Assembly (NCBI GenBank): GCA_039621445.1
Contig: CP154954.1
Location: 49,889,847-49,953,846 of the forward strand
Length of the DNA stretch: 64,000 bases
Origin: Euglena gracilis
Lineage: Eukaryota
Direction of reading: 5' to 3'
Both the position numbers and the translations under genes were made by a program. A model generated the notes under the pieces. That model did no database searches, was not told the DNA's origin, and saw nothing but the letters and a program-made list of their open reading frames with translations. Each line of letters begins with the position of its first letter. The first letter of the stretch is position 1. Positions 4,392 through 62,265 of this stretch are shown here, one piece after another.

Positions 4392-7300
4392 TCAGATGGG
4401 GAGGTCGGGCGCGGCCAGGGATGTACAGGAAAGACTGGTGGGGGGGGGGTTGGGGTTGACTGTCAGCCACCAAAGGAAAAAGGAATCATTTTTTAAGACG
4501 CCTTAAAAAAAACCTTAAAATGCCTCAAAATTGCCTTAATCGTTGCTTTTGACCCCAAAAAACGGCGCCGCCAGAAAAACGGGAAATCGTGGTGGGATGG
4601 GGTTGGACCCCCCCCCAACCCACCACCCGTGGGGGTTCGGGGATTCCCGGACAGCCCGGACTGCGGCGGAGGGGGAGCGGCTGGTGGGGGATGGCAAGGC
4701 GCACGCCCGAAGGGTGTGGCGGGCTTGGGGGCAGCAGTGCCACCGGCGCCCCGGGAGGGGGTTCGCCCATCGTCGGGAGCCGAACGACACCCCCCGCGCC
4801 ACTGGCAGTGTGGCGGATGGGGAGGACGCGGATGCGAATTCCGGGGAAGAGTCGAAATACCGAGGGCACAACAAACCGCAGGCAGAGCACAGACAAGACC
4901 AGACTTTCATTGAGCACCGCAGCGAACTATTCCGCGATGCAAAAGATATTCTTGCCGCGGTGCACGTGGCGCACAGAAAGAAATCTTCCGCGGCGCACGC
5001 AGTCACAAAAAGTTTGGTGCCGCGGCGCAGAAAATTTTTTTCCGCGGCGCACTAAATGAAAGTCAGGATTCTGGGGGCAATGTGATGCCCCTGATTCTGA
5101 TTCTCAATGTGCTCCCTCTTCAGGGTAAAGCCAGGTGGGGGGTGCTGTGGGGGGGGGGGAGCTGGAGACACCCACCTCGAACCCTGGCCCCCTTCCAGAA
5201 TGATTTCTTCCAAGCCAGAATTGCAACTAACAACAAACAGAATTACAACAAAAGGAGCGGGGCAATGGCTGTGGGGCGTTTCACCGACACAGATTTTTGG
5301 GGGATGACAGCAGGGCTGTGCGGGAAGGCCTGATGGGGGGGGGTCGGACCCCCCTCCAACCAGGATGGGGATGGGGGGGGGGTTCGACCCCCCAACCCAC
5401 CATAAGGTTGTGGGGATTCCCATGCAGCCCTGGATGTCAGGGGGGGGGATTTGGTGCCAGAGTGAATTGGAGGCAAAAAAATGGGGAAAAAATTGGAGAC
5501 GGCAAAAATTGGCTGTCCGAGCCAAAAGAGCAAGAACATATTTGGCAGGGTTTCAGGCAAAAACAATTGGAAAAAAATAGGCAAAGCGCAAAACAATGGC
5601 TGACCTCGCCCCCGGTAGGGGTCCCAGGCTGGAGCTGGGCCCGGGGTCGAACCGGGCACCAAAAAAATTGAAATTTCAGAAAATATCAACAATTATACAA
5701 AAAATCGATTTTTTTTGACCCCAAATTTGTCCTGGCCAGCACTTTTCTGACCCATTTTCGCCCATTTTTGGCCCATTTTTGCACCCCCGAAAGCAAACAA
5801 ACAATCCGTTTCCGTCCAGCTGCCCGAAGGGCAGCTGGAAAAAGCAGAACTTGTTGATGGCTGCTGGTTGGCGTACCCCCCCCCCCCTGGGTGGTGGGGT
5901 CAAATCTTCTTTAGCAACTCCATGCCCTCTGAAGATCAGATAGCACCAGACAGGCAGAGACCCTAAGACCTGAGCTGCTGAATGGCCGGAAAACACATTT
6001 TTTGTGCACACCACCCATGGGTGCCCAACGGTGGCCCTGCTGGGCTGGAGAGGTCGGCCTCCAGCGCCTGCAGCGCGGGAGGGACCGGTTCAGCGCTCTC
6101 GGGGCGGGGCGGGGGGACGCCGGGGCCGGTGGGCCCAACCAGGGGACTCCTCCCCCTCCTGGGAAGTGGTCGCCAGCCCATTCAGTATGCACAAGTCCAC
6201 GTGACAACTTCCCAGGTGGGACAGCGTCAACCATATTGGGGCAGGGTAGGAAATGAGTGGGGAGAGGGGGGGGGGGTTGGACCAGGCCCCTGGTCGGCCC
6301 TGGTTGGCCAAACAGTCGGCCATGGGTGGGGGGGGTCAGCAAATAAAAAAGAGGCACACACCCCGACCATGCAATACATTTTCAAGCACTTTTGCCCACT
6401 GTTGGCCGTATTTTGCATACTGTTCCTCACACTTGGCCTCTTTTGGCCACTCTTATGGCGGGATCTGGCTGTTTTTGCCCATTTTTGGCTGTGTTTAGCA
6501 TTTTTCCCACTTTTGGCTGCTGTGAGCTTCTTTTGGTTGCTTTTAACCACCCTTGGTTAATTTTTTTTGCCACTTTTGGCCACTTTCGGCTTTCTCGCCC
6601 ATTTTTTTTGGCCACTTTTGCCTGCGTCCACTGCTTTTTGGCCACTTTTGGTCAATAGTGACTGCTTCTGGCCTCGTTTGGGCACTTTTGGCTGATTTGA
6701 GCCATCGGAAGCAACTTTTGGCCACTTTGGAGCATTTTTTGCCCACTTAACGCGACTTGAGGCTGCTTCTGCTGTTTTTTTTTTTTGACTTTTGGTCCTC
6801 TTGGCCTCTTCACTTGCATCTTCCTTGAGTTGGTGGGAATGGGCAAAAAAATGGGCAAAAGTGGGCCAAAAGTGGATAGAAGTGTAGGGGAGATGGGCAA
6901 CAGTGGCAAAAATGCCCAAAAAAAGACTGCAGGCCAGGAAGAACTTGTCCACCATTACCATGGAAATGATCGGCAAACAAATGGTAACATCGGCCCGAGT
7001 TGGCCCTAGTCGGCCCTCATCAGATCCCTCACATATGGGAGTCCTGAAAATCATGGTCACCCCTGGTCGAACCTGGTGGTCGGTTGGGAGGTGCTAGGTG
7101 TGCCCCCCCCCACCCCCATGAACAGGGCTGTACAAAAAAAGGCCTGGTGATGGGGGGGGGGGTCACCCCCACCCACCATCACACCCAAATAAGGAAAATT
7201 TTGACCTAAAAATCGGCGCTCCCGGAAACAGGGGAATGCCATGTTGGAGGGGGTTCGGACCCCCCCCTGCCACCAGAATGGGGGTGGGGGGGTGGGGTGG

Positions 7301-10300
7301 TCGACCCCCACACACCACCCATGAAGAGGGGGGTCGGACCCCCCCGGAAATATATATATTATATTATATATTATTATATATATATTATATATATATTATA
7401 TATTATATATATTCTATATACACATACATATATATACATATATATGTACATATATATATATATATATGTTTTGGCCCGTGTTTCTTTTAAAAATAGTACG
7501 CAAAAACGCGATTTTCGGGCCTTGTCAAAGGCCCAAAATTTTTCACCGTACACCAAAAACTTCATCTCTGTACTTGGTTTCCGGGGGGAGTCCCAGACCC
7601 CTGGTCTGAAGGGGGGACCCCCCCCGTACAAAACCAGTGCTCACTGAATACCCTGCATGGGGTGACAAGCAGGATGTTGGGGGAGGGGATTATTTGGTTG
7701 GTCCATCCGAGAGGGGGGGGGGGTGTAAACGAGGGGTTTGCTTGGCTGATTTACCACCTGAAATTGGCTGAGATTGGCTGGTTTTCCACCGGAAAACAAC
7801 CCCTCCTTGGAGCAAGGCAAAGCACAATGAAAAAAAGATGTCCTGAGTGTGCAGCACTTTAGCAAGCAAACAGTTTCCAGTCGAAAAAATGGCCTTATTT
7901 TTGCAAAAAAAAATGTGTCAACTTTTAGAGAGAAAATGATTTCTGGATCCTTGGACATTTGCCCAGCCACCCAAAAAGTGTGTTTTGCGGCCTTTTATTT
8001 CTGGGCTCCGTTTGACGCCCTTGGACAGACTAAGGCTGGCCCTTTGGCCCAAGGGTGGTTCTTACAGGGCAATACAATTTAAGAAAATCCCCGTCCCGTA
8101 CACACCGCCTGGGGGTGATCAAAGAAAGCCCAAATCCAGCGGGACTTTGAGAAAGAGTCTTCAAAAATGGTAAAAATGGTTTAAAAAATGGCGTTTCTTG
8201 TGGTTTTACCCATGTTTTAGGTTAAAGAAATCCAATGTTTGTGGGCTCAGTGAACTGTCCCATCGTTTCACCAGCGGACCCCTGGTGGGGAAGGGGGGGG
8301 GATCCGGCGTGAGAAGTCCCCTGGGCCCCACAGGGTTGGGGGCGGTGCGGGCGTACAGAGGGGTGACGTGGGCCGGGCAGGGCAAGGGGTTGACGGACGA
8401 GGAGGGGGAGGGGGGGAGGGAGCGCTAGACAGGCTCCCCAGGAAACAATGTCACATTTTGGGGGTCCCGGTGCAGGGTTGCTGTCCTGTGCGGTCAACGC
8501 CTGATTGTGGCACCGGCTCGGCCGCCCGCAGGGAGGGAGGCGGATCGGGAGCGCTCACCGCACCGTGCCCCTTCTGCGCGGCGGCGGACACGGGGATGAG
8601 GTGCGGGGCCAGTGGGGGGGCGGGGGACGGGAGCGCCCCACTGCAACGATGCATCCCTCGCATCTCCGCCATTGTTGCATGCGGTTCTCACTTTTACTCG
8701 CAGCACCCACACAAAACACGATTGAAAACTGTTGAAGATCAGCGCAAAATGACAACGATCGGGGCCGGGGATTTGCGTATCCTCCGAATAATAATAAGCA
8801 TGTCTCCGGGTCGCGATGAGGGTGGCAGGGCACCGTTTCGTAATCCGGCATCGGCTTCCTCCCGCAATCTTCCTCCCCCAGTCCAGGGCAGCGGGGCGGC
8901 CATGGAAGGGGGGATCCCCAACATTGGCAACGCTGGCTGGGCAATGACGTAGAGGGCAGGGGCCGCCACCCACTGCACGAGTTGGCCAACGGGAGAAGAC
9001 CGGTTTGCCTCGGGGGTGTTGTCCGTGGGGAGAGGCACGTTCCTCGCACGTCCCAGCCCCCAGGCTTTGGTTCAAACCACGTGGAGGAGTGTGCTCCCCA
9101 TTTGCAAGCACCTATGACAGATTCCAAATTTTAGCCCGCGGTCGGCTGCGGTCGGCCGCGGTCGGATGCGGTCGGCTGCGGTCGGCCGCGGTCGGCTGCG
9201 GTCGGCTGCGGTCGGATGCGGTCGGCAGCGGTCGGCAAAGTAGTTGGCTGTAGGTGGGGGGCAGGCCAACAAAAAATGAGCATATATCACAATCACACAA
9301 TCCACTGTTGCCAACTTTTGGCCACTTTTTGATGCTTCTGGAGTGCTTTTGGCCACTGTTGCCGACTTTTGGTCGATTTTTGCTGCCTTTGCCCATTATT
9401 TCCTGCCTTTTGCTTTGTTATGGTCACTTTTGTTGCTTTTGCCCACTTTTTTGCTGTGTTTTGGCTGCTTTTGGACAGCTTTTGCTTTACCTTGACCTCT
9501 TTTGACCACTTTTGGCCTCTTTAACCCACTTTTGACCACTTTTCTCTGCTTTTGGCCATTTTTACCTACTTCTGGCCACTTTCAGGCCACTTTAAACGTC
9601 GTTTTGTTGCCTTTGACATCAAGAGCAGTCAAACGTCACCTAAAAATGGCCTAAAAGTGGCAAAACATGGTTAAAATGGCCAAAAGTTCCAAAAGTAGGC
9701 AAAAATAACAAAAAAAATGCCCAAAAATGGCCCAAAATGACCCTGCTTTTGGCCGATTTGGGTCACTTCAGCAGCTTTTGTTCACTTTTGGCAACAAACT
9801 GGCACAAAATGCTCAAAATGGTCAAATTGGACCAAAAAGAGACAAAAAAAATGGGCAAAAATAACAAAAGAAATGGTCGAAAATGGCTTTAAATGGTTAA
9901 AAATGGCCCTAAATGGCCCAAAATGGCCCAAGAGCAGGACAAAATGGCCCAAAATTAACAGAAGTGGGCAAAAAGTGCCAAAAATGGTCAAAATAGGTCA
10001 AAATGGGTGAATTATGGTGGCAAAGGGGCCAAAGGGGGACAAAAGCGACCAAAAATGGCCAAAAGTGGCCAAAAGTAGCAACATGAGCCAGATGAGCCAG
10101 AAAAATCTCAACATCTGGGATAAAAATGAGCCCAATTCCTCATTCTCACTGAAAAATTGACATCAATTAGAAAAAAGTTGCGCGGTCGGCTGCGGTCGGC
10201 TGCGGTCGGCTGCGGTCGGCACCCCACCTATGACAGTCCTGAAACCCGCGGTCGGCCGCGGTCGGCTGCGGTCGGCTGCGGTCGGCTGCGGTCGGCTGCG

Positions 10301-13300
10301 GTCGGCATAGGTGCCTGCCCATTTGGTCAAAGATGGAATGGGGGGGGGGGGTCACTCTCCCATCCTAAAATGAGCATAATCAAAACGGTTGACAATTTGC
10401 GAAGCCGAAAAAAAACCCTCAAAATCAACAAAAATGAATTTTGGAGAACTAGTTGGGAAAAAACGTCAAACAAAAAGACCGTCACAGCGCTGGAGGAAAA
10501 CTTCAATTCTTTTTTGGAATATCTGACGCATATTCATGGGATCCCTCTCTGGCTGCTATTTATTAAGGCTGCTATCAAATATATCACTCCCCACCTAAAT
10601 AGCAAACGAGAATGAGTGGTGTTCTTTTCATTGGGAGCCTCTGGCCGGGGTGCAGCTTGCTGCACTTCTGGCCGAACTTGCACTGCCCCGTCATGGCCCA
10701 CACCTCACACACCTGCCGGCCGGCCTGGGCCTGCACCACACCATGGCTTCCTGACCTGCCAGGGGTCACTTAACTTTCAACACACGACTCAGTTAATTCG
10801 ACACTCCATCCCTCCTGGAGGGGGGGGGGTTGGTGCCACTACATAAGACCCAGAATTGATGCAGCATGACTGTTTTGTTCAGTAACTCAACGCCCTCATT
10901 GCCAGCTAAAAGCCACAATAACGCCCACTCCAGGGAGACCTAGAGGGGGCTCAGTGCAAATGTGAGAAAAACAACAAAACAAAACTAGTCAGTCAGTAAA
11001 CCCCCCCCAAAAAATAAGACCCCCCCCAAAAATAAGACCCCCCCTGGGCCGATCGAGCAAGAATCCAAAAATAAGACCCCTCCCATAAATAAGACCCCCC
11101 TTGACGGCGCGAAGCGCCGGGGACGGTGAAAATCTTCCCTGAAAAATTACCAAAAACCCCAATTTCATACACAAAAATGATGAAATTTCAGAAAATTTCA
11201 GATTCTTGAAGTGGAAAAAACATGGTAAATGTCAAATTACACCATTTTACACATGGCGCGAAGCGCCGAAGGAAAAATTTTAGCACTCTCGGGAACCTGA
11301 AAAATGGTGTTTTTTCGGGCCCGGGTCGGTCAAGAAAAAATCCAAAAATAAGACCCCCCCAAAAATAAGACCCCCCCCTGGAGGCTTCCAGCAACGGACC
11401 CAAAAATAAGACCCGGGTCTTATTTTTGGGGGGGGGGGGTTTAGGGCGGGGGTACTTCGAAATATGCGATGCAAAAACGCAAAAAATGCAAATATAAGAA
11501 GACGTAAATCTCTTAAAATTTACAGTTTCTCCAAGACCCGGGTTGTGTTTTCTGTTGGAAAAAGCTTTACTCTCACCCCCCCCCAAGCGCAATGAACACT
11601 AAAATGACAATCTGGACAGTCTTCGGAGAACACAGGGGTTGAGAGAGAGCAAAGGGGTTGGCTGACAGGCTTTCTTAAGGACCCCGGTCCACTGCTAAGC
11701 CATTTTGTTAGACACTGGAAAAAATGGACCGGGTATTCCCCCTCCCCCCCCCCCAGGGTTGTATGGGAATCTCTGGGGGGGGGGGATCCCCCCTCCTACC
11801 TCCAGTTTTCGGTCGCCGAAAATTTCGGCCGCTTTTTGGGTAAAAAGATCGATTTTTTTGAAATTTCTCAAAAAATGGTGGGGAATCAAAAGAATGGGGG
11901 GGACACTGGACTGGTAATGGCTAATTGTGAATAAAAAGCACATGGTGTGTGGTAATAATTTATTTTCCTTTGAAGGCTTGGTTAGACTGCTTCATTCACA
12001 CGTGGACATGTGGACTTTGAAGACTGACTTGCACCAAGTTGCAATTGTAGGGGCACAATGTTCAGGCAAGAGCTCTGTCTTAGAGAGCCGAGTTGGGAGA
12101 TATTTCCTGCCCTGAGTTTCGACATCCCAAAATTCCAAACGCCCCCTGTTCATTGCACAAGGGCGTTCATTGGATGTGGGGGGGGTCAGGTAACTGAGTT
12201 ATTTTAATTTCATAAAGCAAAACACTTTGAATAATCATTCGCAATCTTTTGAAGCCAAAAATGCATGATGAAAAGGGTGCCTTTCGTGTTTTTTTTATAA
12301 AAAAAACCAAAAAAATGGGGAAAAAGACAGAGAAAAGCAGTGCAAACTTATCCTCGGGGTTTGTTGCGGAGTTGCATGGAATTATACTTCATTTCAAACA
12401 GCAACTCATTCAGATCAACAAATCAACAAAAGCTTTCAAAGCATTGTTGAACCATTACAAAAACGCAGATTGCACAACTGGCATACCTCCCGCCTGCAGT
12501 CAGCCAGCCATGTGCCCCCACCGCTTTGTGGGGACCCCAAGACGTGGTGTGGTCTGCACCGCGCCGGACAGCAGCTGGTAGTCCGAGAGGTCCGGGTGGG
12601 GGAACCGGCACCGGGGGGACTGCCCCCGCCTCTGCCCAACCTCACCCCCCCCCCAGGCACTTGGCCCGGGCCATGACTGAAAAGCCAACCTTGCGGAGCC
12701 AAGTTCGCATTTTAAGATTTTTTTTGCAGGCCTGGGCATGATTGAAGGGAAGGCCAGGGGCCAACCTTTCGGCGCTAAACTTGCTGATGTTGAGAATTCT
12801 GGCGGCCATATGGGCAAAGGCCGAACAGGGGCAGGCAAATGGCACTGGCACATATACACAATTTCCCCCCCTTAATGTTCAAGGGTCAAATGTGGCATGT
12901 TTTCCTTCAACATTTGACACATTTTTTCAAGTCCCCCTGCACTTGCCCCCCCCCTGACTTTCATGCTATTTGTCCCTCTAACAGTTGGCCAGCAAGGGAG
13001 AACTCATTGGACGAATGGGTTGTTGGTAAAAGCTCTTCAAAAACGGGGGTTTTCAACGAAGATGGCAAACAACTGAAAGAACGCAAATGCACTGGGTTGC
13101 TGAGCAAAATGACCTGGGGCCAGAGAGAGAGAGAGACAGATAGACAGACAGAGAGAGAGTGAGAGAGGGAGACAACTTCCCCTCCCCCTTTAATGGACAC
13201 TGAAAGGACAACACGAGACATCATTGGGCGTGTGTTGTATGGCAGTTGTGTTGCTGAAAGGTGGCAAACTAGACGGTCCTGACACCCGGTTCTTTAGACA

Positions 13301-13508: not shown

Positions 13509-13803
13509 TTCTGGGGAGGGGCCGGGGCAACCACCACCCTGTACAGAGGTGGTCAACTTGCCCCCCCCCCCCCGTTCAGCAGGCGGAGCCGTGTGTGCAG
13601 TGTCTGTACCCCCCCTTGTCCAAGAGGTGCCAATGCTCAGGGAATGTGTCGTTGACACAGGCGGGTGGACAACGGCATGGTGTGTCAAAAATGCCGTCAC
13701 GGAGGGCGTGTCAACAACACGGTGTGTTTGGGCAAGGGGGGGGGCATCTCGCATCACCCGATGCTGGTGGCAATGAGAACTTAGGCGGCGCATCTCGCAC
13801 TTA

Positions 13804-14017
13804 CCCCCCCCCTTGTCGTACGACCGGGTTCCTGCAACCTGTGACTGGGGGGGGGGTCATAAATGAGGGGGCGGTTGTAGGTAAGGTGGTGTTAAATTTT
13901 TCGCAACCTGCAACCTGTGACCGGGGGGGGGGGGGTCATAACACCCCCATGACCTGCAACCTGTGACCGGGGGGTGGTCGTAAATGAGGGGTGGTCGTAC
14001 GACTAGGGGGGGGGGGG
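13804..14017. mobile_element. TA-TSD MITE family A (Tc1/mariner-pogo-like); copies at ~15824-16250, 21732-22149, 29493-30178, 36968-37214, 41532-41779, 52461-52582
   Basis: TA|C(n)TTGTCGTACGACC...GGTCGTACGAC(T/A)AG(n)|TA with internal CCTGCAACCTGTGACCGGGG repeats. Confidence 0.8.
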
Positions 14018-14243: not shown

Positions 14244-14759
14244 CAGGGTTGTATGGGAATCTCTGGGGGGGGGACCCCCTTCCAAAACTAGGGGGGGGGG
14301 GACCCCTCCTACCTCCAGTTTTCGGTCGCCGAAAAATCCGGCCATTTTTTGGGGGGGTCCAAAAAGCATTTTTTCTGAAATTTCCTGAAAATGATGGGGA
14401 ATCAGAGGAAATGTCAAAAGATCAAATTGAAGCCCTTAAAATGCCCCATCTAACAGAGTTTTGATTACCACTCAACTCCCCACCAGTCCCGAGTTACGGC
14501 CATTTTTTTTGTACATTTTGCCAAAATTTCATGTTGTGCCTCAAAAAAGTACAAAAATACACACCCGGCGCGAAGCGCCGGAATTTTTTTTTTTTTTTGC
14601 TCCCGCAGAGGAGGGGGAGGGGGGTGGGCGGGGACCCCCCCCCTTCCGAAACTAGGGGGGGGTGGGGGACCCCCCCCCCCCCTACCACCTTACCCCCCTA
14701 CGGGGGGACCCCCCCCCTACCACCTACCTCATGTCTGCGGAGCTTCCCATACAACCCTG
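14244..14759. mobile_element. hAT-like MITE, CAGGGTTGTATGGGAA family (other left ends at ~11754, ~63920)
   Basis: 16-bp TIR; perfect TSD gggggagt; inserted in the right end of a small TA-flanked element starting ~14126. Confidence 0.85.
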
Positions 14760-18425: not shown

Positions 18426-18597
<172 letters not shown>

Positions 18598-29585: not shown

Positions 29586-30014
29586 CAGGCTTTTGCTTAA
29601 GGACCCCGGGGGGGGGGGGGTACTGGCTAGCCAATCGGCTAGACACTGGAAAAAAATGGACCAGCTAGCCCCCGGGGGGGGGGGGGGTCCGCCCCCCCCC
29701 AACTGGAAAAAAAAATCCTCCGGCAGCTGCGTGCCGAGGTGGAAATGAGGTTTTTAATAGGGTTTTGGCTGATTTTGTTCCAAAAATTCCCAAAAATGGC
29801 CAAAAATGGCATTTTTGGCCATTTTTGGGGGTCCCAAAAAAAATTCCGGCGCATCGCGCCGGTCACTAGAAAAAAATTTTCCACTAGCCAGCCCTGCTAG
29901 CAGACCCCCCCCCCCGGGGGGTGGGTCTGCTAGAAATTCCACTAGCCAAATTTGGACTAGCTGCAGTCCAGCCCCCCCCCCAGGGGGTACTGCAATCTTT
30001 AAAGCAAAAGCCTG
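29586..30014. mobile_element. hAT-like MITE, CAGGCTTTTGCTT family, nested in a TA-TSD MITE
   Basis: TIR CAGGCTTTTGCTT/AAGCAAAAGCCTG; perfect TSD gtggtcgt. Confidence 0.88.
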
Positions 30015-33540: not shown

Positions 33541-33972
33541 CAGGCTTTTGCTTAAGGACCCGGGGGGGGGGGGGGTACTGGCTAGCCAATTGGCTAGACA
33601 CTGGAAAAAGTGGACTAGCTAGACCCCCCTCCCCCCCCGGGGGGGGGGGGGGTCCGGGGGTCCCCCAACTGGAAAAAAAATTTCCTCCAGCGCTGCGCCG
33701 AGTTGGAAATGAGGTTTTTAATAGGTTTTTGGCTGATTTTGTTCCAAAAATTCCCAAATTGGCCAAAAACGGGCATTTTTGGCCATTTTTGGGGGGTCCC
33801 AAAATTTTTTTCTTCCGCTCACGCCGGTCACTGGAAAAAAAATTCCACCAGCTAGCCCTGCTAGCAGACCCCCCCCGGGGGGTCTGATAGAAATCCCACT
33901 AGTCAAATTGGGACTAGCTGCAGTCCAGCCCCCCCCCCCCCCGGGTACTGCAATCCCTTAAGCAAAAGCCTG
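33541..33972. mobile_element. hAT-like MITE, CAGGCTTTTGCTT family (decayed relatives at ~18000-18260, ~48790-49065, ~58760-59185)
   Basis: 17-bp TIR CAGGCTTTTGCTTAAGG; TSD gtcactac/gtcaccac; nested in an AAAAACCAGTCAGTCAC-family repeat. Confidence 0.85.
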
Positions 33973-47262: not shown

Positions 47263-47706
47263 CAGGGGTTTACTTCAGACACCACGGGGGGGGGGGGGTC
47301 CTGCGGGCCGGCTTGAAAAAGGTGCTGGCTAGGGGTGGGGTGTCTGGAGGGGGGGGGGGGTCCGGTCGGCCGGTTGGCTGGGAGCTGGACCCGGCGGGCA
47401 CCCCAAAAAATGCCCGAAAAAGCCCAAATCCAGCTGGGTTGGCATTTTTCAGCCAAAAAATTGGAGGCAAAAACCCAAAACCGGCCCCAAATGCCATTTT
47501 TTTTGACCATTTTTGACCCATTTCCCCAAAAATTTTGGCGCTTTGCGTCGAGAAATTTTTAGGTCCACCCGGCTGGTCCGAACTTTATTTCAGCGGACCC
47601 CGGGGGGGGGGGTCCGCAGCCCGGCTGGGAGGTGCTAGCTGGAAAAAAAGGAGCTGGCTGGCTGGATCCCCCCAGGGGCCGGGTCCCCTCTGGCTTGAAA
47701 CCCCTG
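47263..47706. mobile_element. hAT-like MITE
   Basis: TIR CAGGGGTTT; TSD acacccaa/atacccag (6/8). Confidence 0.55.
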
Positions 47707-50700
47707 ATACCCAGACAATGTTTTCATTAGAGAGGAAATAACTGGGGGGGGATCACAACAAACATTTCCCCTCTCTGGTGGATGGCCAAGGGTCAATCTG
47801 TGCAGGCTCTCAGCACAATTTGCGGCTTTAGTGCACTGATGAGTGGCGATGTGCGGGACAGAGGGTTGGAAGGGGTGGGCAGAGGCGGATGAGACCAGCC
47901 TGAGACAGTACAGCAGTGGCCTCCAGTGATAGTTCTTTGGATGGACATTTAACTCAGCAGAATATTCAACAACACAGTCTTTTGTGATGTTATCGTCATC
48001 CTGTTATACCATTATTTTCATTTGATGCTTGCGTGATCTGCAACGTTCCAAGTGCAGCAACAATCTGCCCAAAATGTCCCTCGATGTACAATGTCTGTTG
48101 GGTTTGTTCGGACTGTAAGTGGCCTTTGTGTGGTTCATTTTCCTCTCCTAAGATCGACCCCCACGGGGGGACTCTTCCCCAAACCCAAACCCACCCACCC
48201 ACGACCCCCCCCTTGGGGATCAACCACCCAACCACCAACCCAAAATCCACCCCAAATCGGCAGAAGATCTTGGGGAAAAAACTTTTCCAGCCCGGACTTC
48301 TGCGGGCAAAAAGTTGACCCATGGCGCACCCCCCCCCCCAGTTGCACTGTGGATTCTTGTCTGTTTATGACCGGCGCCAACTTCGCTTCTGGCTCAGTTT
48401 GCTGTGGGGAGTAGCCAGGGACCCCTGACACCAGTGTTGCTCTGCTGGCCGGGTGACTCTGGTGTAATGCCAGTGCTCAATGGACATACCCTCACCTTGT
48501 GTGGTTTGCACGGGAAGGCCTGCAGAGGGAGTGGTCGGACCCCCCACCCGGGAGGTGGGGGGGGGTTCGAAAAACATTGCGGTCACCAAACCGACGAGAA
48601 ACCCTGAACTGGAAGAGAAATGGACGCCTGGTGACTCCTTGTGTCGCCTCCTTGCGCACTGGAACCTGTGTGCAGGCTCAGCCACTGCCTAAAGAGCTCT
48701 CACACCGCAGTCTGTGCCTGTCAAAGTTTATTCGTCGGTGTCTGGATGAACTTCCAGCAGGGTGGGGGTCCCAGAACCCAGAGCTAACCCAGAGCCGGGG
48801 GGGTCCGGGGTCCCCCCAACTGGAAAAAAATTTTCCTCCGGCGCTGCGCGCCAAGGTGGAAATAAGGTTTTAAATGGGGTTTTGGCTGATTTTGATCCAA
48901 AAAAAATCCCAAAAATGGCCAAAAACGGGCATTTTTTTTGGCCATTTTGGGGGGTCAAAAAAAATTTCCGGCGCTTTGCGCCGGTCACTAGAAAAAAAAA
49001 ATTCCACTAGCTAGCCCTGCTCCCCCCCCCTGGTCCGGGGGGTAATCCCTTTTGCAGAAGCCTGGTTACCACTCTTCCAAAAAACCAGTCAGTCACTTTT
49101 TCTGGAATACCATTCAGTCACCCCCCCCCCCCAGATCGGGGTTGGCCACTCTGGAACCCAAGGAAATTTGACCATAAACGTGGAAAAAAAGGATTAAAAA
49201 AATACGGCGCGTTGGGGCCAAAATCACATAAGTGGATTTTTGCTGACCCCCCGCCCCAGGGGAAGGGTCCGGGCCAAAAACCAGTCAATCACCCCCCAAA
49301 AAACCAGCCACCCAACGTTGGGAGGGGGCGGTGTCAACCGCACTTTTTCCGTACTCAAATATATGTCCCATGGTGGGGTGCTTATGATATGGCGTGCAAG
49401 GTTGGGTTTTGGGTTTTGGGTACCCCCCCAAAAAATTTGTTTTTTGGGGGGGTACCCAAAAAAAGCCCAAATTTTTGGTTTTTGGGACCCCCCCCCCTTA
49501 TTTTAGTCCACTTTTGCAGACCTTTTCATCCTTCATGCAGCATTCAAGAAATTTTACAAGGCTGTGGACCGCAATTGGTTAGGAGCCAATTGTCACACCA
49601 AGCTCCTCCATTGCCGATTAACCCTAAACAGCACATACCTATGCAAATTAAATGTGTATAATGAACTCATTATAAAACCGTGACCCCCCCCCGTGACCCG
49701 AGAATCGAACCTTCAATGACCTTCATCTCTTCAACCTTTCCTTTCGGGATCATTGATGCTGCCTCCCGACTACCTCCAAATAGGATTGCTGAAGAATTGC
49801 GCGGAGAATTTTCAACAACAAAATTTGTTCTTCTGGTTGGAAAATTGTGGGAAAATATTTTCCCCATTTTCCCCAATTTCCCATTTCGTTGTGGTTTTTT
49901 TGCAGGCGTAATTTGGACCCATTTTTCACAGGACATTTTTTTGTTGAATGGAGAAATATCGAAATATTTCCAATTTTCCGCATTTGCCCTCAAAATTTTC
50001 CATTAAATAAATAAAAAATTTCCCGCAAAACGATCAACCCTACCTGCAAAGTGACATACTTCCCCCGTGACCCCCCCCCGTGACCCCCCCCCGTGACCCG
50101 CACCACCCCCAATGAAAAGTTTTGCAGAAAATTAACACACATCATTACAAAGAAATCGGCGGGGAACAGATAAGGAGGCACAACAATTCCTAGCCTTTCT
50201 GGTGTATGCTTTGGGAGTTGCAGCATTCCTGGCGTTTAAGCAAATTTACTGGGGTCCCTGCAAAAAAGTCAGAGAGAAATACAAAAATTTATGTCCTTTT
50301 TTGCATTGGTGGTGCCCACCAATGCAAACACCACAGGTGCCCACCTGTGATACCTCAAACACAAAACATTTGTCGAGGCTGGCTGCTGTTGAGAGGAGGA
50401 TTCTTCTAAGTCCGCTCAACAGCTTTTGTACAGACCCAAAAATTTGTTTTTTGGGGGGGTACCCAAAATTTTTGGGTTGTTTTTGGGACCCCCCCAAAAA
50501 TACAAAAACAAAACCCAACCTTGTGGCGTGTCCATGACGCCCCCACCCCATGCCAACCACATTTCCCCATATTTTGGTGTGTCAAAGACGGGGGGGGGGG
50601 GGGTCTGGTTCGGTCCAGTTTGCTCGTGGTGCCGAACTGAGCAGCGGAGGCCACACGAGATGTGGGATAAGGCACATTGGAACCGCCGGCTTAGGCTACA

Positions 50701-53700
50701 GCAGACCCAACGCGCGTCGCCGGTCAAACGGACCGACAACCCCCACGCCGTCGATGGGCAAGGAGCGCCTGGCGGGGAAAGAACCGGGCACGCGCACAAA
50801 AGAAATGCTAACAACAAAAACATGAATGGTGATTTGCTCCCATGTTCTCATGGAATTGAAATCCCTGCAATTGTCCCAAATGAGGGTTTCATAAAAGACC
50901 TAAAGATGGATGCCATTCAGGGAGTTGTTCATTTTTTAAGACCTGGGGGGTACACGGCCGGCTGGAAAAAGGTGCTGGCTGGACCCCCTGGGTGGGGACC
51001 ACGGACCCCTTTGCGAGAACTAAAAAGCACCCTTTTCGGTCTTTTTTGCACTTTTGCAAAAAGCTTCTTCGGTCTTTTGGCACTTTTTTCGGTTTTTTTT
51101 GCACTTTTTCGCAAAAAAAAATGGCATTTTCGGAGACCACGTGGTCCACAAAATCCATTTTTGTTCATTTATTGTCATGAATTCTGGTCTTTTAACCACA
51201 CTTTTGGGGATCGAAAACCGGGGTCGGTGGCCCAAAATTGGGTCTGTATTATTTTTTCAGTTGAAATCGGACAAAAAGGGGACAAAAAGCAAAAATATTC
51301 CAAAATCCAGCTGGACGCAATTTTGAGTCAGAAACAATTTTTGGGGGTGAACCTCCTCTAAAAACTGGCAAAAACGTCCATTTTTAACAATTTGTACCCT
51401 TTTCAAAAATTTTGATTTGGACTTTGTGCCAATTTTCTTTTCCCGGTCCAGGTGGTGGTCCCGGTGATCTGCTCATGTGGCCCCCACCTCCGGGTTCCCG
51501 GCCACATGATTGTGGAAGAATTCGGTCTGAGGCAAAACGATGACTTTGGCCACTTTTGGTGCTGCCACTTTTGGCCACGTTTGCCCACTTTTGCAACTAA
51601 ATCCAGTCTGGTCCAGCACGGTTTTCCAGCCGGCCTGCTGGACCCCCCAAGGGGTCTGAAAAGAATGCATGTTATGCAGGTCTTTGCGTTTTTTGGTGGC
51701 ATTTCTTCAAAGGCTTCACAACTGTTCCTCGTTCACGACCAAGATGAAGTGCGACCCCCCCCCGCAACCCCCCCCCCCTGCGCCCCCAACACCCCCAGAA
51801 GTGGCCAAAAGCAGTTAAAGGGAGCAAAAAGCAGCTAAAAATCAGACCAACTGACCAACCACGCTGAAATAACCCCCCAGTGTTTTTTGTGCATTGTTTT
51901 TTTACAAAATTTTCTTTCTCCAAGGCTGCGTTTTGGGGGGGGGGGAGGCATTGGGGAAAAAAATTGACAGAATTACAAAAGTGGCCAAAATGGCTTGAAA
52001 GTGGCAAAATGTGGGGGAAATTGGCCAAAAGCAGCCAAAAAAAAGGCTTAACGTGGGCAAAAGTGGGAAATTATGGACAAAGTATGGCAATGCTTCCAAC
52101 AAGTCACACATGGCTTCTGAGGTGCAGGCAAATATTTTTGGGTGGGCGCTTCCACAGCCCCGCTGGTGCAGGGAATCCTTTTTTTTATAAAAAAAAGTCG
52201 TGCCGGTGCAAGAATTAATGATTCATTGTTGCATTCCCTTCTTTCACCAATTTCCAAAAGCGGGGGGGTCGCGGGGGGGTCGCGGGGGGAAACGGGTTTT
52301 GCGGCAGGTCATGCATGACTGGTGTGACGTCATTCTTTCCTCTACTTTTAGATCCCAATTTGGAATTTGCGTGCCATTTGGGTCCAAAAGTAGGTCCAAT
52401 TAGGAATTTGGGACGAGTTTCTCGCACTTTTGATTCCTAATTGAGTGGCAGATTCCCATCCGCCCGCCCCTTGTCGTACGACCGGGTTCCTGCAACCTGT
52501 GACCGGGGGGGGGGGGGTCGTAACACCCCAATAACCTGCAACCTGTGACCGGGGGTAAATGAGGGGTGGTCGTAGGGGGCGGGCAATTAATATAAATTTT
52601 TTGTACTTTTTGGAATCTCGAATCGGTTTCAGAGGGGGGGCGCGGGGGGGGGGGGTTTGCGGAGGGGTCGCGGGGGGAACACCCCCTCTGTTGACTGTTG
52701 GTGACTTTTTGGGGGGCGAGAGTTGGCAAAACTGGCCAAAACTGGACAAATGCAGTGAAAAGTGGCCACCACTCCCCCTGAGTGTTCAGCATTGGCCTCC
52801 CAGCAAGAGTCCCAAACATGGCCAATTGTGGTTTTACATTGGGAAGTTTGCAAAAATGGCCAACTGTGGCCAAAATTTGCCGTGTTGGGGGGGGAAGCAA
52901 GGTATTGCAATGACAGATAATGAAAACAGAAAAATAACACTTCCGACACATAGCTTTTGGGGTAAAAAGCCACACCACACTTTGCTCTTTCTTCCCAAAA
53001 CTGAAACCTGTCTTCACACATCATCCCCACTGCAGACAACCATCCCATTCTGCAACATCACAACTGCCTTCTGTGGCATCAACATTGCATCTCTGATAAT
53101 GCAATTCAATCAAGATATTTATTTCAACCAGCTGCTCGTCAATGCCAAGCTTCTCTTGATCTCAAAATCAATCAAATGAATTCTCTGCGGAAAAAGCAGG
53201 AAAACTTGACAACTTTTTGGTTGTTTTTTTTTAGTGATGGCATTCCATTGCTGTACAAAAAGCACAAAAAAAAAAGCAAGGATCCAGGAAAATCATTAAT
53301 TACCAATTAATGTCCTTTTAGATTTTGTGGAACCCTCCTTTTGTCCAAATCCTTTGTCCCATCTATTCTTCCGAAGTTGTGTGGTCAGGATTGTCAGGAT
53401 CAGAGGGGAATTTGTCGGACTTTGTTGGGATTTGTTGCCGGAGGGGTTCCAAACACCTGGCAAAATTCCTGGGGTTTGTGATCGAAATACGAAAAAATAA
53501 ACTCAAAAAATGGAAGTTCGAGAAACTGTCAGAATGAAGGAAAAAACAAATCCTCCAAAAACTCCCAACTCTTCAAGGCCAATGTGTGGTGCACAGAAGG
53601 CGCCCCCCCCCCCCCTTCAGCTTTCCGAAGGATTGAGGGAGTGGAATAACTCAGAGGGGAATGTAGGTCATGGACATCAGTTTGCTGGTGGATGTTACTC

Positions 53701-54214
53701 AAAATCCCTGCCACACTTCTTTCCTTCCATTCTGCCAGACATTCCCTGGACGCATACCGATACAAGGAAGCACTGGGTATGTGAGGCCAGTGGAAAGGGA
53801 CCGACAAGACACTGATGCCCAGAAATCTGCGAACCACATGCCGATTCGTGTCACGTTCCCTCCACCCCAACACCACATCCGTGCTCTCACCCAGGTGCAT
53901 GCCACATGTGCACAAAATCCGTGCACAAATCTTGGGAGAGTCTTTTCAGAAATCAAACGGAGAAACAATCCGCCGCCATTGACCTTTTTTCAGGTGAGGT
54001 TGGCCCCCAAATTTCCTGGAGAAGAGTTGGTGGGTTTTGAGCGTTGTGTTCAGTATTGTTAGCGGCGACGATACATTTATTCTTCCTTGAGTCTACACAG
54101 GCAAGCAAATGTATTTTCAAACAAAGAGGAGGGAGGAGCGGGTTGTGTGAGCAAGCCACCACACAGACGGTCTTCAAACAACCGTCGTCATTCCCCAGGC
54201 AGAACTCTCAGGGT

Positions 54215-57200
54215 TCAGTAGCTGGGGACGTTCAGGGCCCGCAGCAGGTCCAGCAGGGGGTGCGGGTCTGCTGCAGGCTTCTTTTTACCAACCCCCACCG
54301 GGGGGGGGAGGAGGGTGCCTTGTGCCAAGGGGTTCCTGCCCACAACAGGCGGGTCGGTTTTGGAGCCCAGCAGTGCCTGTGACCAAGCAAATGTTCCCAT
54401 AAAAAAAATCCCTTAAAATTGCCATTTTCGGCCCCGACACCTGCGTCACCCGGGGGGGGGGGGGGGGGGCTTTAGCACTACCCACCCCAAAAACCCGACC
54501 CCCCAGGGCGGGTCGAAAATGCCCAACCCCCCTGCCTGCTTACAGCATCCACCTGAGGGGGGCAAAAATCCTTACCAACAAGAGGCCTGGGTCTCCGGTT
54601 CGGCGGAGGGGACGGGGTCTGCGGGGGACGGCAGGGCACAGCCCCGGAGGGCGTCGCGGGCTTGGCGGCAGCGACCCCCGTGTCCCGGGGGGGGGGGGGC
54701 ACAATGAGGTTTTGGGGCGGATTGAGTTTGACCCAGGACCACCCTTGGCTTGCCACCTGGCCCAAGGGGCGAAATCCCTCAGGGAAGAAGCCTCCCTCAA
54801 TACCCCAGGCTGGCACTGAGTTGAAAAAATGTCTGCTTCAGTTTCAAGAAATTATTCTGATGGCAATACTTTTTCTGATATGTAAAAGCAAATTTCGAGG
54901 TTTTCTGCATCGCTCACATATTACTGCTGGTACAAATCAAAATGGACGGCCCCTGAAACAAGAGTTTTTTATTTTTTGAATTCTTGACCACCTTTCTGAT
55001 TGTGAACTCCGATGGAACGGGGAGCTGCTGGGCTGGAGAGGTCCGCTTCCAGCGCAGCCAACGCCAGCTGGGCTGAAGGGTCGCCGTCCGCCTGCGGTGT
55101 GCCCGGTGTGTCGAGCTGGCCAGCGGGTGAAGCGCTGGTTAAGTCCCTGGGTTCCACCACAGTTGCTGCCTGCAGCAGGGAGAAGGGGAAGACGTGGGCC
55201 GGACGTGGCCAGGTAAAGACGGACTGGCAGGCGCAGCGGTATGGATGCATATCCATATTTGCATCCATACTTGTCCACGAAGAGGTCATGTGCAGATTGG
55301 TTTGCAAATTGAATCCTTTTTATTTGACCCTAAACTCCCCCCAAATATGACCCCCTGGTACCACCTGGGCACCCCCTGGAAACCTCCAGGGGGTTATATT
55401 TATGGGGGTCTTGTTTGTTCTGGGCAAGGTTCTTTGCACTTCAACAACACGGAAACCAGAAATCTGTGAAAATCCATCATTTTTGTGTCGAAAATTGGGT
55501 TTTCTGTAATTTTCCGTGGAATTTTTTTCACCATCCCCAGCGCTTCGTGCTGTCAGGGGGGGACGTATTTTGTTAGGCAAAAAAGTAAAAAAAATACTAA
55601 ACAGTCACAAGCCCATCAGTTTGGGCGTTCGAGCTTTACGGTAAGCAGAATTGAGGACGAGTTCTGGTTGTGGGGGGGGGGTCAACGAGGGGATGGGAAG
55701 GGCACAGCCGTCGTCAATGCCTGGGTGCCGTGCTGATGAAAACGCGGGGTCGGCCGGGGTGGCCAAGGGCGACTGCACCAACACGGGGGTGCCTGGGCCG
55801 TCGGAGGTTGGGACGGTGGCAGAGCCGCAGGGACACCACGCAACGGAAAACTTGTGCGGCGAAAAAACAACATTGGCATGATGGGGGTAGGGAGGTGCCC
55901 CTCCCCGATGACCAGGTGGGGAGGGGAGGCGGGTTGTTGCCGTCCACCCATTCGGGTTCCGCTGGCCCTGCTCAGGCAGCCGCTCCGGGGTTGCCTCTGC
56001 GGGGGCCGGGCTCGGACACGCCCCACTGCCGGCCACGGCCCCGCCCCAGCGTACCAAACGTTCCGTGGGGGGCGCTGGGCCGGAAACCTTGCGAAGACCG
56101 CCCGAAGGCCGGCCGAAAGGCGGCAGCGGAGCGCTTGGCGCGGGCTGGGCGGGTCGCGGGATGACGTACTGGGCAGGGGCCGTCCGAAGGGGGCGGTCAG
56201 CATGGGACGGGATTTCGAACGCGGGGTGAAATGCGTGGCAGTCGGGTCCGTGGAATGTGACGGGGGGAAAATAGCAATGGTTTGAGGCAATTGAAATGAA
56301 GAATTATGAGAAAAAAACGTTGGGGCAAGGAACTGCCCCAGTATGATGTCCAAGGTATCCATTGCGTTTGGGCAGGGTTTCCAGAACCTCCGGGGGAAGG
56401 TGGAACATCGACAGGAAAAGCAAAATCCAAAAACAAAAATACGGTGTTTTTGCAATACAACGATGGCCTCGTTTTCTCATTCTTCCCCAAACTTGGCCGA
56501 TTTGTGCAACAAAGCCGGGGGGAAAAAAAGAAATCCTTGATAAGAATCATCACAGCGTGGCAATTGTAAGGCCCTGTAAGCAAATATATTTGTTTATGTT
56601 TGGTGTGGAATGCAGGCCCGTGGAGGTGGGGCTATATTTTGGGGGAGTGGACTCCATAATGTGAGTCACACTTCTGACTCATATAGGGAGGCCCCTGGCC
56701 GGGGTGCAGCTTGCTGCACTTCCCGCCGAACTTGCACTGCCCCGTCATGGCCCAGACCTCACACACATAGATTCACTTAGTGACCCCCCACGGGGGACGT
56801 TTCCTGGGCCCAAACCACCCACCCACTTTTTTCGAAAGCCCACCCTCCCACACCCCCCCCCCCGGGTCAAACACCTGCCCAATCACCCAAAATCCAGCAA
56901 AAATCGGCCGAAAACGCTGGAAAAATGTTCCAGCCCAGCCTTCGGCCTGACAAAAACCCCGGGGGTGGCAGAGGCCACAACCACCCCCCCCCCCGGGGGG
57001 GGGGGGAGGGGTCGGTAAGTGAATCTATGCTCACACACCTGCCGGCCGGCCTGGGCCTGCACCGCCCCGGACAGCTGCCGGTAGTCCGAGAGGTCCGGGT
57101 GGGGGAACCGGCACCGGGGGACTGCCCCCGCCTCCCTCACAGCGAGGCCCTGTCCCAGGGTGCTCCTGCTCCGGGCAGGCATTCCACAATACAACGGTCG

Positions 57201-59762
57201 TCAAAAGAAACCTGGTGCAACGCCCTCTTGTTTGATGGTTCGTGCCAACATTGATTTGAACACTGCTGGTTTGATCCATCGGGCTGACTCAGGCAATTCT
57301 CTCATGAAAATGGTTATTTTGGGGTTCCCGGTGCTGGTGCACAACACGGAACATCGCAAAACCCAACACCCAAGAAGCGGGGTGGGGGGAATGCCTCCTC
57401 CTCCACATGGGCTATTGCTTGCCCCCCCCCCCCAGGAAAATGTCCTCCCGGGAAACTGTCATCTAAGCCCACGGTTCAAACAGGGTGGGTAGATAAGGAG
57501 CGTTGGGAGCACCATTGGAAGAGATGCCCTGGGATGGCAGGTGTTTGATGGCAACGCGGCCATCAAATAAATATGTATTCTGCTCTCAAAAAAACGTATT
57601 TTTTATGCTTTTGGATGGATCTAGTGGATATGGTCAATCCATCTCCCAGTTGGCAGTTTGGGGGACTGCCACCTGCAATATTTTTTTGGAGTTTGAGGAA
57701 CATCCTCAAAACCGACTGCCAGACCGGGGCCATGATTTGGTGGTCGAACATTAAAAGCTCCCACGGCACATTCAACCAAAGTTCACTGGGAAACGGGGCT
57801 CATTCGATATTTCTCGGTGAAAACAAATTGACAGCCGGGGGAAATTGTTCCCAGTTGCCACCAGACAGGTCAGAAAAGCCAGCAAGTACAGAGGTGAGAG
57901 ATACGCCCGCTGAGCAACTATACATGAAGGAGCAGAGAAGCATACAATTTTAACCCACCCTGGAGGGTAACTTCCGAAAAGCAGTCAGTCACTCTGAAAA
58001 AGACCCCTCCCCGGGAAGGGAAAAAAAGGGAAAGGGAAAGGGAAAGGGAAAAAAGTGTCAAGATTTTCAACACTCACCACACGCCGAAATCCGGAAAAGC
58101 AACTCGCCCTCAAACTTTTGATCAGAAACTTGAAAGTGTTGATCCAATTGGAAAATGCCCTTTTCTGAGTGAAGTGAAGGCGGAAAAAAAAGGAAAAACC
58201 CATCAGAGATCTGCTGGTAAAAGAGCAGGAGGTAGGTCCCTAATTATCGACGAGGGTAGAGGACAATTTCCAGGGCACAATAGCGAAGAATCCAAAAAAA
58301 AAGGCGACACCCATCAGCGGGGGGGGGGGGGGGCACAAGGCAGGGGCAGGCTGCCGCCGCACACAGCGGCCCATCAGGTAGTCGAGGCACACCCGTGGCT
58401 TTTCCGCCTTGTCCTCCCGGGATTGCGGAGGTTGTTTTGTACCGGTCGCCCCCAAGCACCTCCAGGACAATGAGCCTTCAATGTGATCGGGAACTGTCGG
58501 GCACTGTGGAATTTGTCGAGAATGGTGGGAATTTAAACACTTTTTGGACCAACAACACGCACACACAGAAAAACGAGGACAAAACAATGCAGGGTTTCAA
58601 ATTACCACAATTTTCACGAGTTTAACAAACAACACGCAAATTTCAAATTCAAGATTTGAAACAACCTCCTGTTGAGAAAAATAAGATGAACGTTTGCAAA
58701 GTCTCGCCAGAAATGTTCGGAAACCCCATCCGGAACCCTCCGGGAAATTGTCACCTGACCAGGCTATTGCTTGAGGACCCGGGGGGATCCACTGGCCAGC
58801 CATTTTGTGACACTGGAAAAAATGGAGTCCGTACCCCGTACGCAGTCTCCGTACCCCTGGGGGGGGGAGGGTCTGGGAATACCCCCAACTAGAAAAACCT
58901 TTCCTCTACCCTGCGCGTCGAGGTGGAAATGAGGTTTTAAATGCATTTTTTCAGCTGGTTTTGTTCAAAAAAAGAATCACAAAAAGAATCACAAAAAAAT
59001 GGCCAAAAATGGGGCATTTTTGGCCAGTTTTGGGGTCCAAAATTTTTTCGGCGCTTCGTCCCGGGCACTGGAAAAAAAAAATTCCCTTGGGGGTCCACTC
59101 GAATTTTTGCTGGCCAAATTTAGACTGGCTGCAGTCCAGCCCGCCCGCCCCCCCCGGGGGGATACTGCGAACCCTTGAGCAATAGACTGCACCTGACAGG
59201 TTGGCAGTGCAGGGACTTTGACAACTTCATATGACAGGATGACCAGTACCAAAAAGTTGCTGGCTGGCTGGCTGGACCCCCCTGGGATAGGGTCCCCTGC
59301 CTGCTTGAGGAAACCCGTGGTTATCTCCTTGTCAGGCAGCTTGGTGAACACAAGCTCAGAGGCAACCGCTCGGGAGTTGTCCAGACTCCCCTCCAAAAAA
59401 ATTGTAATTTTGCTCGTTCCCACCCCCACCAAAACACCCGTCGAAAATTCGTAAATTCCAAACAACTTTTTTTTAAAAAAAACGGGAAAAAGCTCTCCCC
59501 AATTCAATGAGCCAATTTTCGGAAAGGCCAAGGCGAGTACAGAAGGGAGGCCAACTATTGATAAGCAGCTGGGAGCTAATTTCTGGGGGGGGGGCTTATA
59601 GTTGTCGGAAGTGGCGAAACCTCCCCTGAGCAGGGCCTAAAATGTTCGCGAGAACTGTAGCCAGGCATGCTTGGTCGGCCTGGCCGGCTGGAAAGACCCG
59701 CCCCGCGGCCCGTCACTGGCCATTGGGCCCATCGAGGGGTGGGGGAAGGCCGGGATGCGCAT
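54215..59762 (-). CDS. Paralog 4 of tandem two-CCCH zinc-finger protein (multi-exon)
   Basis: Exons: 59762-59677 (MRIPAFPHP...QPAR), 58447-58353 (TGTKQPPQSREDKAEKPRVCLDYLMGRCVRR), 57115-57033, 56760-~56685, ~56195-55885 (APAQYVIPRPA), ~55850-55680 (RHPGID), ~55230-55015 (WPRPAHV..AALEADLSSPA), ~54680-54593, 54268-54215 (DPHPLLDLLRALNVPSY, TGA). Confidence 0.82.
54269..54592 (-). other. Nonconventional intron in last exon, private to paralog 4
   Basis: Sense strand acc-CAGGCCTCTT...AAGAAGCCTG-cagca. Removal gives SAEPE|DPHPLLD, matching the contiguous SAELEDPHPLLD of copy 2. TSD eroded. Confidence 0.82.
56761..57032 (-). mobile_element. Nonconventional intron = 264-bp MITE (56766-57029) inside zinc finger 2 of paralog 4
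   Basis: Same TIR, same site and near-identical interior as 27212-27458; perfect TSD ctcacaca (56758-56765, 57030-57037). Confidence 0.9.
57560..57840 (+). pseudogene. Decayed hAT transposase fragment (first and second catalytic Asp regions)
   Basis: FFMLLDGSSGYGQSISQLAVW...IFLEF...RGHDL, then frameshifted SLGNGAHSIFLGENKL; resembles hAT FSxxLDExxDxxxxxQLxV...EFL...G.DI...TDGAxxMxG. Recognised by eye only. Confidence 0.5.
58448..59676 (-). other. Nonconventional intron in first coding exon, private to paralog 4
   Basis: Sense strand gac-CAAGCA...TGCTTG-ggggc; TSD aggccgac/ggggcgac (6/8). Removal gives in-frame PARP|TGTKQPPQSREDK. Confidence 0.7.
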
Positions 59763-62218: not shown

Positions 62219-62265
62219 ACACACACACACACACACACACACACCCACACATACATACACACACA
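62219..62265. repeat. (CA)n microsatellite
   Basis: Direct reading. Confidence 0.92.

Follow-up and report, generated by a model that had tools for sequence, protein, structure and literature searches.

The origin of the nonconventional introns of euglenids has been an open question for about 30 years. Milanowski et al. (2014) proposed that they derive from MITEs (miniature inverted-repeat transposable elements). A 2024 review by the same group places terminal inverted repeats (TIRs) at positions +4 to +6 and −8 to −6, mentions repeats that look like target-site duplications ('TSD-like') with no length stated, and reports that the introns are released as full-length circles without U1 complementarity (PMC11282704). 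A newly gained, strain-specific gapC intron of Euglena agilis has eight-nucleotide direct repeats, which the text describing it ascribes to break repair (Milanowski et al. 2016, PMC4770533). More recently, knock-in experiments defined the splicing code as N3-CDG...CH'G-N5-6|R; as set out in the main text of that 2025 PNAS paper, the 5' spacer is strictly 3 nt long and the 3' one 5 nt (6 being tolerated), single triplet mutations abolished splicing, and 84.4% of E. agilis introns carry direct repeats at their junctions and are 'slidable' (PMC12501133). Here we describe a 64,000-nucleotide stretch of Euglena gracilis contig CP154954.1 (hereafter, the window) in which MITEs with 8-bp TSDs interrupt coding exons of a CCCH zinc-finger gene, and in which one such insert is removed from RNA as the element plus 8 nt.

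Earlier papers thus already contain the MITE hypothesis, repeats of the TSD-like kind and a young intron with an 8-nt repeat. The PNAS paper says of nonconventional introns that their origin 'remains unclear' and cites MITE-like elements; the word 'duplication' is absent from its main text, and 'hAT' was not found there (PMC12501133). In openly searchable full texts (supplements and subscription papers lying outside the search), we found no link between the 3-nt and 5-nt spacers and an 8-bp TSD, and no naming of hAT for these introns.

The window is euglenid nuclear DNA, and self-comparison showed that it carries four tandem minus-strand units of one CCCH zinc-finger gene (copies A to D), spaced 12-17.5 kb apart and spanning 4600-62500. 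Coding exons of individual copies are interrupted by five clean inserts (cases 1-5, Table 1), each with inverted CA...TG ends that directly abut 8-bp repeats. Cases 3 and 4 are 93% identical over 447 columns and represent one insertion event common to two copies, leaving four independent clean events rather than five. The site of case 2 is present as an exact single-copy empty site in copies B, C and D, and that of cases 3/4 in copy C and the other copies lacking the insert. All four copies of the zinc-finger exon align without gaps once the inserts are deleted at the borders drawn in the initial annotation. Case 6 is exactly and unambiguously absent from its two sister sites. For cases 1 and 5 the sister copies are colinear but the empty site is only approximate, because the surrounding exon is fast-evolving, proline-rich and too diverged for base-exact placement. 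The initial annotation, made from the letters alone, had described seven exonic inserts, two of them (cases 6 and 7) eroded, with TIRs, 8-bp TSDs and empty sites in sister paralogs; ends and duplications hold up in cases 1-5 (6-8 of 8 positions matching), whereas case 6 has no duplication (3/8) and case 7 is a misfit. We rejected case 7 as a member of the pattern and did not count it, since it shows no 3/5 pairing (6/12 positions) and has TCG rather than CTG at −8 to −6.

Elements of the same kind lie outside exons. We detected one of them (N2) by comparing the units for large indels with overlapping flanks, and scanned the window for inverted ends matched at 11/12 positions or better, with flanks matching as a TSD at 7/8 or better and an offset control. 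This strict scan returned 634 candidates, seven of which had TSD-grade flanks versus one in the control; five of the seven begin with CA, N1 and N4 among them, and the remaining two seem to be artefacts of low complexity. When the window was scanned under relaxed conditions at k = 8, the outcome was noise (12 matches versus 8 in the control). Altogether, eight independent insertions in 64 kb, four exonic and four non-exonic, have CA...TG ends and an 8-bp duplication matching at 6-8 of 8 positions, and no symmetric extension of the repeat to a ninth base is seen. The inserts are class II non-autonomous MITEs with 8-bp TSDs and CA...TG ends.

This uniformity bears on the proposal that 8-nt junction repeats arise from double-strand-break repair, by filler DNA, microhomology or staggered ends, and not from transposition. 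Such an origin was put forward for the E. agilis gapC intron with its 8-nt repeats, in the text on that intron (PMC4770533), and it might draw on the fact that the inserts of cases 1, 2 and 5 have no second full copy within the window. Break repair, however, predicts neither a fixed repeat length nor TIRs. Here the inverted ends of every insert begin exactly at the repeat, and the repeat measures 8 in 8/8 independent events. One family is represented by two full copies in separate places, each flanked by its own 8-bp TSD, as well as by fragments, and the empty site of N2 is present twice. Eight insertions with a uniform 8-bp duplication and CA...TG ends point to a mobile class instead of break-repair filler. 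We therefore rejected break repair on the TIRs and the fixed repeat length, and consider it highly improbable.

Removing 3 nt, the element and 5 nt leaves an open reading frame (ORF) with conserved motifs on either side, as the initial annotation had proposed; in case 1 this yields a single ORF across conserved motifs. Conventional splicing was rejected: in none of the seven cases did we find GT/GC-AG or AT-AC borders at any slide position compatible with the spliced product, in keeping with the earlier claim that no usable GT-AG pair exists. The first intron base and the first base of the downstream exon are purines in all seven cases, again as claimed; where a duplication exists, both purines are the same duplicated position (x6) and so are not two observations. 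At the two sites where the ancestral base is known, the TSD mutation lies in the copy predicted to be intronic (2/2, weak evidence when taken alone), and in case 2 it is the derived base that sits there. In the 3/5 register the termini pair at 10/12 or more positions in cases 1-6, and these six cases also have the required spacing and a purine at the start of the exon. CAG/CTG triplets occur only in cases 1 and 6. The excision geometry assumed in the initial annotation is the one that has now been defined by experiment, in the knock-in results of PMC12501133, and the sum 3 + 5 = 8 is a correct and non-trivial fit to those published experiments.

RNA evidence covers 44201-64000, the stretch on which reads and contigs were placed: two contig runs presumed to be RNA (X1 and X2), a raw RNA-seq run (X21) and a run of DNA contigs (X20). 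Among the 15 joints listed of 829, the joint 58443->59673 removes case 5. It skips 1229 nt, which is the 1221-bp element plus 8, and is supported by 11 X21 reads and by one contig each of X1 and X2, with none in the DNA run. The joint has 5 nt of positional ambiguity; the 3/5 register is one of its six possible placements, and a cut upstream of TSD position 4 is incompatible with all of them. Case 6 is removed by the joint 54268->54593, which skips 324 nt without ambiguity and is carried by six X21 reads with at least 69 nt on each side. The joined form of case 6 also occurs in X20 as one contig with a 41-nt side. This is expected from the empty sister copies, which show 95% identity over exactly 41 nt. 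The step from transposon to nonconventional intron is directly shown for case 5 and well supported for a second event. More broadly, this stretch holds at least 12 RNA-supported introns (cases 5 and 6, nine other RNA-only joints and one deduced from loose ends), and none of the 12 has GT/GC-AG or AT-AC borders. Read depth, which came in 660-nt bins and was affected by poly-G read artefacts at 54451-54470, was not used to judge retention; the high X20 depth over the bin of the case 4 MITE may stem from its C/G-run palindrome and was not used as a copy number.

For the zinc-finger MITE of cases 3 and 4, several indirect lines of evidence suggest removal from RNA. The exons of copy D, taken from the RNA joints and the deduced intron 56169-56700, concatenate into a continuous ORF from the ATG at 59762 to the stop in the last exon, and this ORF is unbroken only with the MITE taken out; retained, the MITE would bring a stop codon into copy D. 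Between copies B and D, the flanking exon shows 0/144 substitutions and no gaps, whereas the insert shows 10/252 substitutions and 23 gap columns (Fisher p = 0.016). Copy B has a single TSD mismatch, located in the right-hand repeat that is predicted to belong to the intron; if this repeat were exon, the finger would have Arg in place of its first Cys. In a minimum-free-energy (MFE) fold of RNA 56751-57042 (z = −4.5), the TIRs form a stem, beyond which 3 and 5 nt stay single-stranded. For cases 1-4, removal from RNA is inferred.

The same data must be weighed against the possibility that the interrupted copies, at least A and B and perhaps D at its MITE, are decaying pseudogenes with unspliced inserts, which would leave cases 5 and 6 as the only true introns. 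In favour of this, the 15 joints listed of 829 include neighbouring ones from this gene but not that of case 4, and protein database searches returned transcriptome proteins of the family, none of them specific over the insert sites to copy A, B or D. The CAT/ATG and CAC/GTG triplets fall outside the tested code, and the unexplained 95-nt segment of copy B (case 7) would shift the frame. Against it stand exon halves that are identical between B and D around a diverged MITE, and four exon copies that all keep their frame and zinc-finger residues after insert removal. The MITE-bearing copy D is clearly transcribed and is spliced at 10 other introns. The missing case 4 joint is uninformative because copy C, present in the same reference and colinearly about 98% equal to the spliced form of D and B, may take up the reads. 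Transcriptome proteins P0001-P0007 and P0009 are contiguous across the insert sites; P0009, which is D-like, is contiguous over the case 6 site and begins downstream of the zinc-finger exon. On balance, we regard the pseudogene explanation as unlikely.

Our preferred reading is that exonic MITEs with 8-bp TSDs are removed as nonconventional introns by a 3 + 5 geometry, and we place its probability at roughly 0.7. Several observations weigh against it. RNA supports removal of only one of the five clean inserts (case 5), within the read-covered stretch, outside which cases 1, 2, 3 and 7 lie; the unlisted case 4 joint counts here as well. For case 5 itself, the RNA bounds the 5' cut to six positions (offset 4-9) and does not fix it at 5, and the RNA nature of X1 and X2 is itself a guess. 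There are many additional genomic copies of the gene, so reads are not always attributable to one copy. The triplets of cases 2-5 (CAC/GTG, CAT/ATG or CAA/TTG) lie outside the published CDG/CH'G. Three of the 12 introns depart from the spacing: 60918-61354 (3/3), 47912-50657 (3/4) and 57116-58352 (3/6). Finally, the other 11 RNA-supported introns match in the pseudo-TSD register at 27/88 positions, about the level of chance (0.25). Only young inserts carry the TSD signal, and older introns keep no trace of a duplication.

Most of the RNA-supported introns listed agree with the published N3-CAG...CTG-N5|purine code: seven fit N3-CNG...CNG-N5, case 5 fits N3-CAA...TTG-N5 and intron 57116-58352 fits N3-CTG...CAG-N6. 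Intron 56014-56136, with CGC/GCG triplets, is outside the CAG/CTG code. All four off-code introns, this one and the three with exceptional spacing, have strong terminal pairing.

A mechanism can be proposed that joins these observations. MITEs with CA...TG ends (mostly CAGG) and 8-bp duplications have inserted between exons and inside coding exons of single copies. In pre-mRNA, the two inverted ends of an insert would pair, and the nonconventional-intron machinery would make two cuts, one lying 3 nt upstream of the CAG-type triplet at the 5' end and the other 5 nt downstream of the CTG-type triplet at the 3' end, before a purine, after which the exons would be joined. Because 3 + 5 = 8, what is excised would equal the element and one duplication's worth of bases, and the pre-insertion frame would therefore return without a scar in either orientation of the element. 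The sole requirement on the 8-bp target would be that its sixth position is a purine. Position 6 of the TSD is G in 4/4 exonic events and a purine in 1/4 non-exonic ones (gene orientation), a difference that is suggestive only.

hAT elements usually combine a CAG start with a TSD of 8 bp, and their TIRs are short, with the terminal consensus YARNG. The terminal 5-mers here are CAGGG in case 1, N1 and N4, CAGGC in N2/N3 and case 6, and CATAG, CACAC and CAAGC in the remaining ones. Judged by TSD length and the CAG(G) termini, hAT is a candidate identity. The MITEs might instead become introns while being moved by another superfamily with 8-bp TSDs (Merlin, P or other), in which case 3 + 5 would act as a survival filter in exons, letting only elements with 8-bp TSDs persist there, and would not reflect hAT-shaped machinery. 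Only 3/8 element types begin with CAGGG, and within the window no element contains an ORF of at least 170 aa that could encode a transposase, of the hAT kind or otherwise. According to a Merlin survey, E. gracilis has two Merlin families with 8-bp TSDs, and Merlin TIRs begin with GG in all families (PMC8101967). We rejected a Merlin assignment since all window elements begin with CA rather than GG. T at target position 2 and A at position 7 account for 8/16 cases versus about 3.7 expected, a bias against a non-hAT origin that is suggestive only. A non-hAT source is a tentative alternative that we hold to be somewhat improbable.

Returning to the proposed mechanism, a stronger version holds that the two spacers of the published code are the two halves of an 8-bp TSD, that CAG...CTG (hAT-like) MITEs are matched to a structure-guided, non-spliceosomal excision, and that insertions into exons with a purine at position 6 are born as scarless introns. 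We consider the case for and against this version to be evenly balanced. The 3/5 offset of the machinery may, as the initial annotation had it, be a footprint of the TSD. Of that interpretation, the MITEs, the removal of element plus 8 nt in case 5 and the 3 + 5 fit stand; the hAT name, the exact cut sites and generality to old introns go beyond the evidence of this locus, where the main step is shown for one element.

Table 1. Features of the window, by window position. For exonic inserts, ends and TSDs are read in gene (minus-strand) orientation (left/right copy), and TIR matches are over the first 20 bases.
Feature	Position	Strand	Element and ends	TSD	Remarks
Case 1	6135-8326	-	6140-8323, 2184 bp, plus 3+5 nt; TIR CAGGGGACT.., 14/20	GTGGGGCC / GTTGGGCC, 7/8	
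Case 2	10732-12554	-	10737-12551; TIR CACACCA.., 14/20	GTGCAGAC / GTGCAGGC, 7/8	
Case 3	27207-27461	-	27212-27458; TIR CATAGATTCACTTA, 18/20	TGTGTGAG / TGCGTGAG, 7/8	Within second CCCH finger of copy B
Case 4	56761-57032	-	56766-57029	TGTGTGAG / TGTGTGAG, 8/8	Copy D; case 3 MITE at identical site
Case 5	58448-59676	-	58453-59673, 1221 bp; TIR CAAGCA, just 9/20	AGGCCGAC / GGGGCGAC, 6/8	RNA-supported intron
Case 6, nonconventional intron	54269-54592	-	ACC-CAG...CTG-CAGCA|G	TSD register 3/8, no duplication	
Empty site for case 6	35557-35668	-			Copy-C unit; second empty site at 20615-20730
Case 7, 95-nt extra segment in copy B	28313-28407	-	6/12 paired in 3/5 register; TCG at −8 to −6		
MITE N1, non-exonic	14244-14759	.	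TIR CAGGGTTGTATGGGAA, 19/20	GGGGGAGT, 8/8	
MITE N2, non-exonic	29586-30014	.	TIR CAGGCTTTTGCTT	GTGGTCGT, 8/8	Empty sites 37062-37070, 41618-41626
MITE N3, non-exonic	33541-33972	.		GTCACTAC / GTCACCAC, 7/8	N2 family, 85% identical
MITE N4, non-exonic	45704-46356	.	TIR CAGGGCAGAAYGGGAA	GGGGCAAG / GGGACAAG, 7/8	
Copy-D gene, coding part	54150-59762	-			10 coding exon segments once MITE excised; ATG at 59762; stop in last exon
Zinc-finger exon of copy C, without insert	44652-44795	-			Pfam zf-CCCH, E = 3.1e-7; empty site for cases 2 and 3/4
Shared nonconventional intron	56169-56700	-	GGC-CAG...CTG-CCCAG		Deduced from loose ends

RNA also clarified the structure of the host gene. What appeared to be two gene families proved to be one gene per unit, joined via the shared intron 56169-56700: loose RNA ends at 56701 and 44652 run on into the exon at 56168 (unit D) and 24016 (unit B). 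Transcriptome proteins P0001-P0007 and P0009 belong to the same family, their source names indicating Euglena gracilis transcript sets, and the copy-D gene is matched by P0001 and P0009. Relative to 55973-56137, P0009 begins within intron 56014-56136, and its transcript apparently kept this intron while introns downstream were removed. Chimeric joints link copies C and D (57117<->45387 and 44795->58355), a sign of cross-mapping between many paralogs, and 154 reads with loose ends at 44652 continue into exon sequence found in none of the four units; the genome must therefore have more expressed copies of the gene than the window. The zinc-finger exon is 96-100% identical among units and the other exons, of variable length, are just 68-88% identical, which suggests strong selection or gene conversion restricted to the zinc-finger exon.

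Further observations concern the elements and their surroundings. In the same short exon region, copies D (at 59677) and B (28313-28407) carry two different inserts within about 10 nt, which may mark a local insertion hot spot or the relic of an older event. Nested repeats give the large inserts a composite look: a long (TA)n/(TATATG)n microsatellite occupies 7360-7480 within the 2.2-kb insert of case 1, and 58750-58972 within case 5 resembles the family of N2. Many elements contain short C-run/G-run palindromes (for example, 56984-57006, 54292-54315, 33623-33653, 15689-15717 and 45027-45055), where the DNA run reaches very high depth and the RNA run has artefactual poly-G reads. A repeat family of about 115-250 bp, dispersed and in part tandem (13831-14014, 22021-22148, 30014-30181, 36971-37215, 41532-41779 and 52460-52555) lies in intergenic or intronic parts of every unit and was the target of N2.

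The locus supplies what the MITE hypothesis had lacked, namely insertions whose 8-bp duplications are still intact and whose empty sites are known, non-exonic examples of the same elements, and RNA proof of one element being removed as element plus 8 nt. The equality of TSD length with the two experimentally defined spacers taken together yields a quantitative, falsifiable prediction. If the spacers are indeed the two halves of a TSD, this would explain why most Euglena introns are nonconventional, why about 84% of E. agilis introns are 'slidable', why a pyrimidine|purine consensus occurs at both junctions (as the same duplicated dinucleotide) and why the youngest known intron has an 8-nt repeat.

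Maize Ds, a hAT element, is said to be spliced out of transcripts when inserted in exons, a finding attributed to Giroux et al. in 1994. Ds thus shares with the present inserts the removal of a hAT-type exonic element from RNA; it uses cryptic spliceosomal sites and is usually removed imprecisely, whereas removal here is predicted to be exact by geometry. The MITE introns of Fritillaria borealis and Amoebophrya, as covered in the review's account of them, likewise have TIRs, TSDs, non-GT-AG borders and a recent (in those systems numerous) gain, but a modified spliceosome is believed to remove them, and their TSDs measure 3-5 nt (PMC11282704). Published euglenid nonconventional introns are also close: like the inserts here they lack GT-AG, have a 3-nt spacer, paired ends, a 5-nt spacer and a purine, and differ in position among paralogs; they have CAG/CTG-type triplets, as in cases 1 and 6, and are removed from RNA, as in cases 5 and 6 (Milanowski et al. 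2014, 2016; Nomura et al. 2025). The present locus differs in that the insertion events are visible, through 8-bp TSDs, empty sites and non-exonic members of the same element types, in that the TSD length is the sum of the two spacers, and in that several inserts have CAT/ATG, CAC/GTG or CAA/TTG triplets. The introners of Micromonas and Aureococcus (Huff et al. 2016, as summarized in PMC11282704) are likewise short DNA transposons; they carry TIRs and TSDs and are introns from birth, and there, too, the TSD contributes to exact removal. In that summary, introners are spliceosomal with GT/GC-AG borders, one splice site being co-opted from a 3-nt TSD. The inserts here, in contrast, gain no GT/GC-AG sites from element plus TSD; their 8-bp TSD would be split 5 + 3 over both junctions and their excision would follow the structure-based code of euglenids. 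If our reading is true, this would be the first introner-type system linked to a non-GT-AG excision route.

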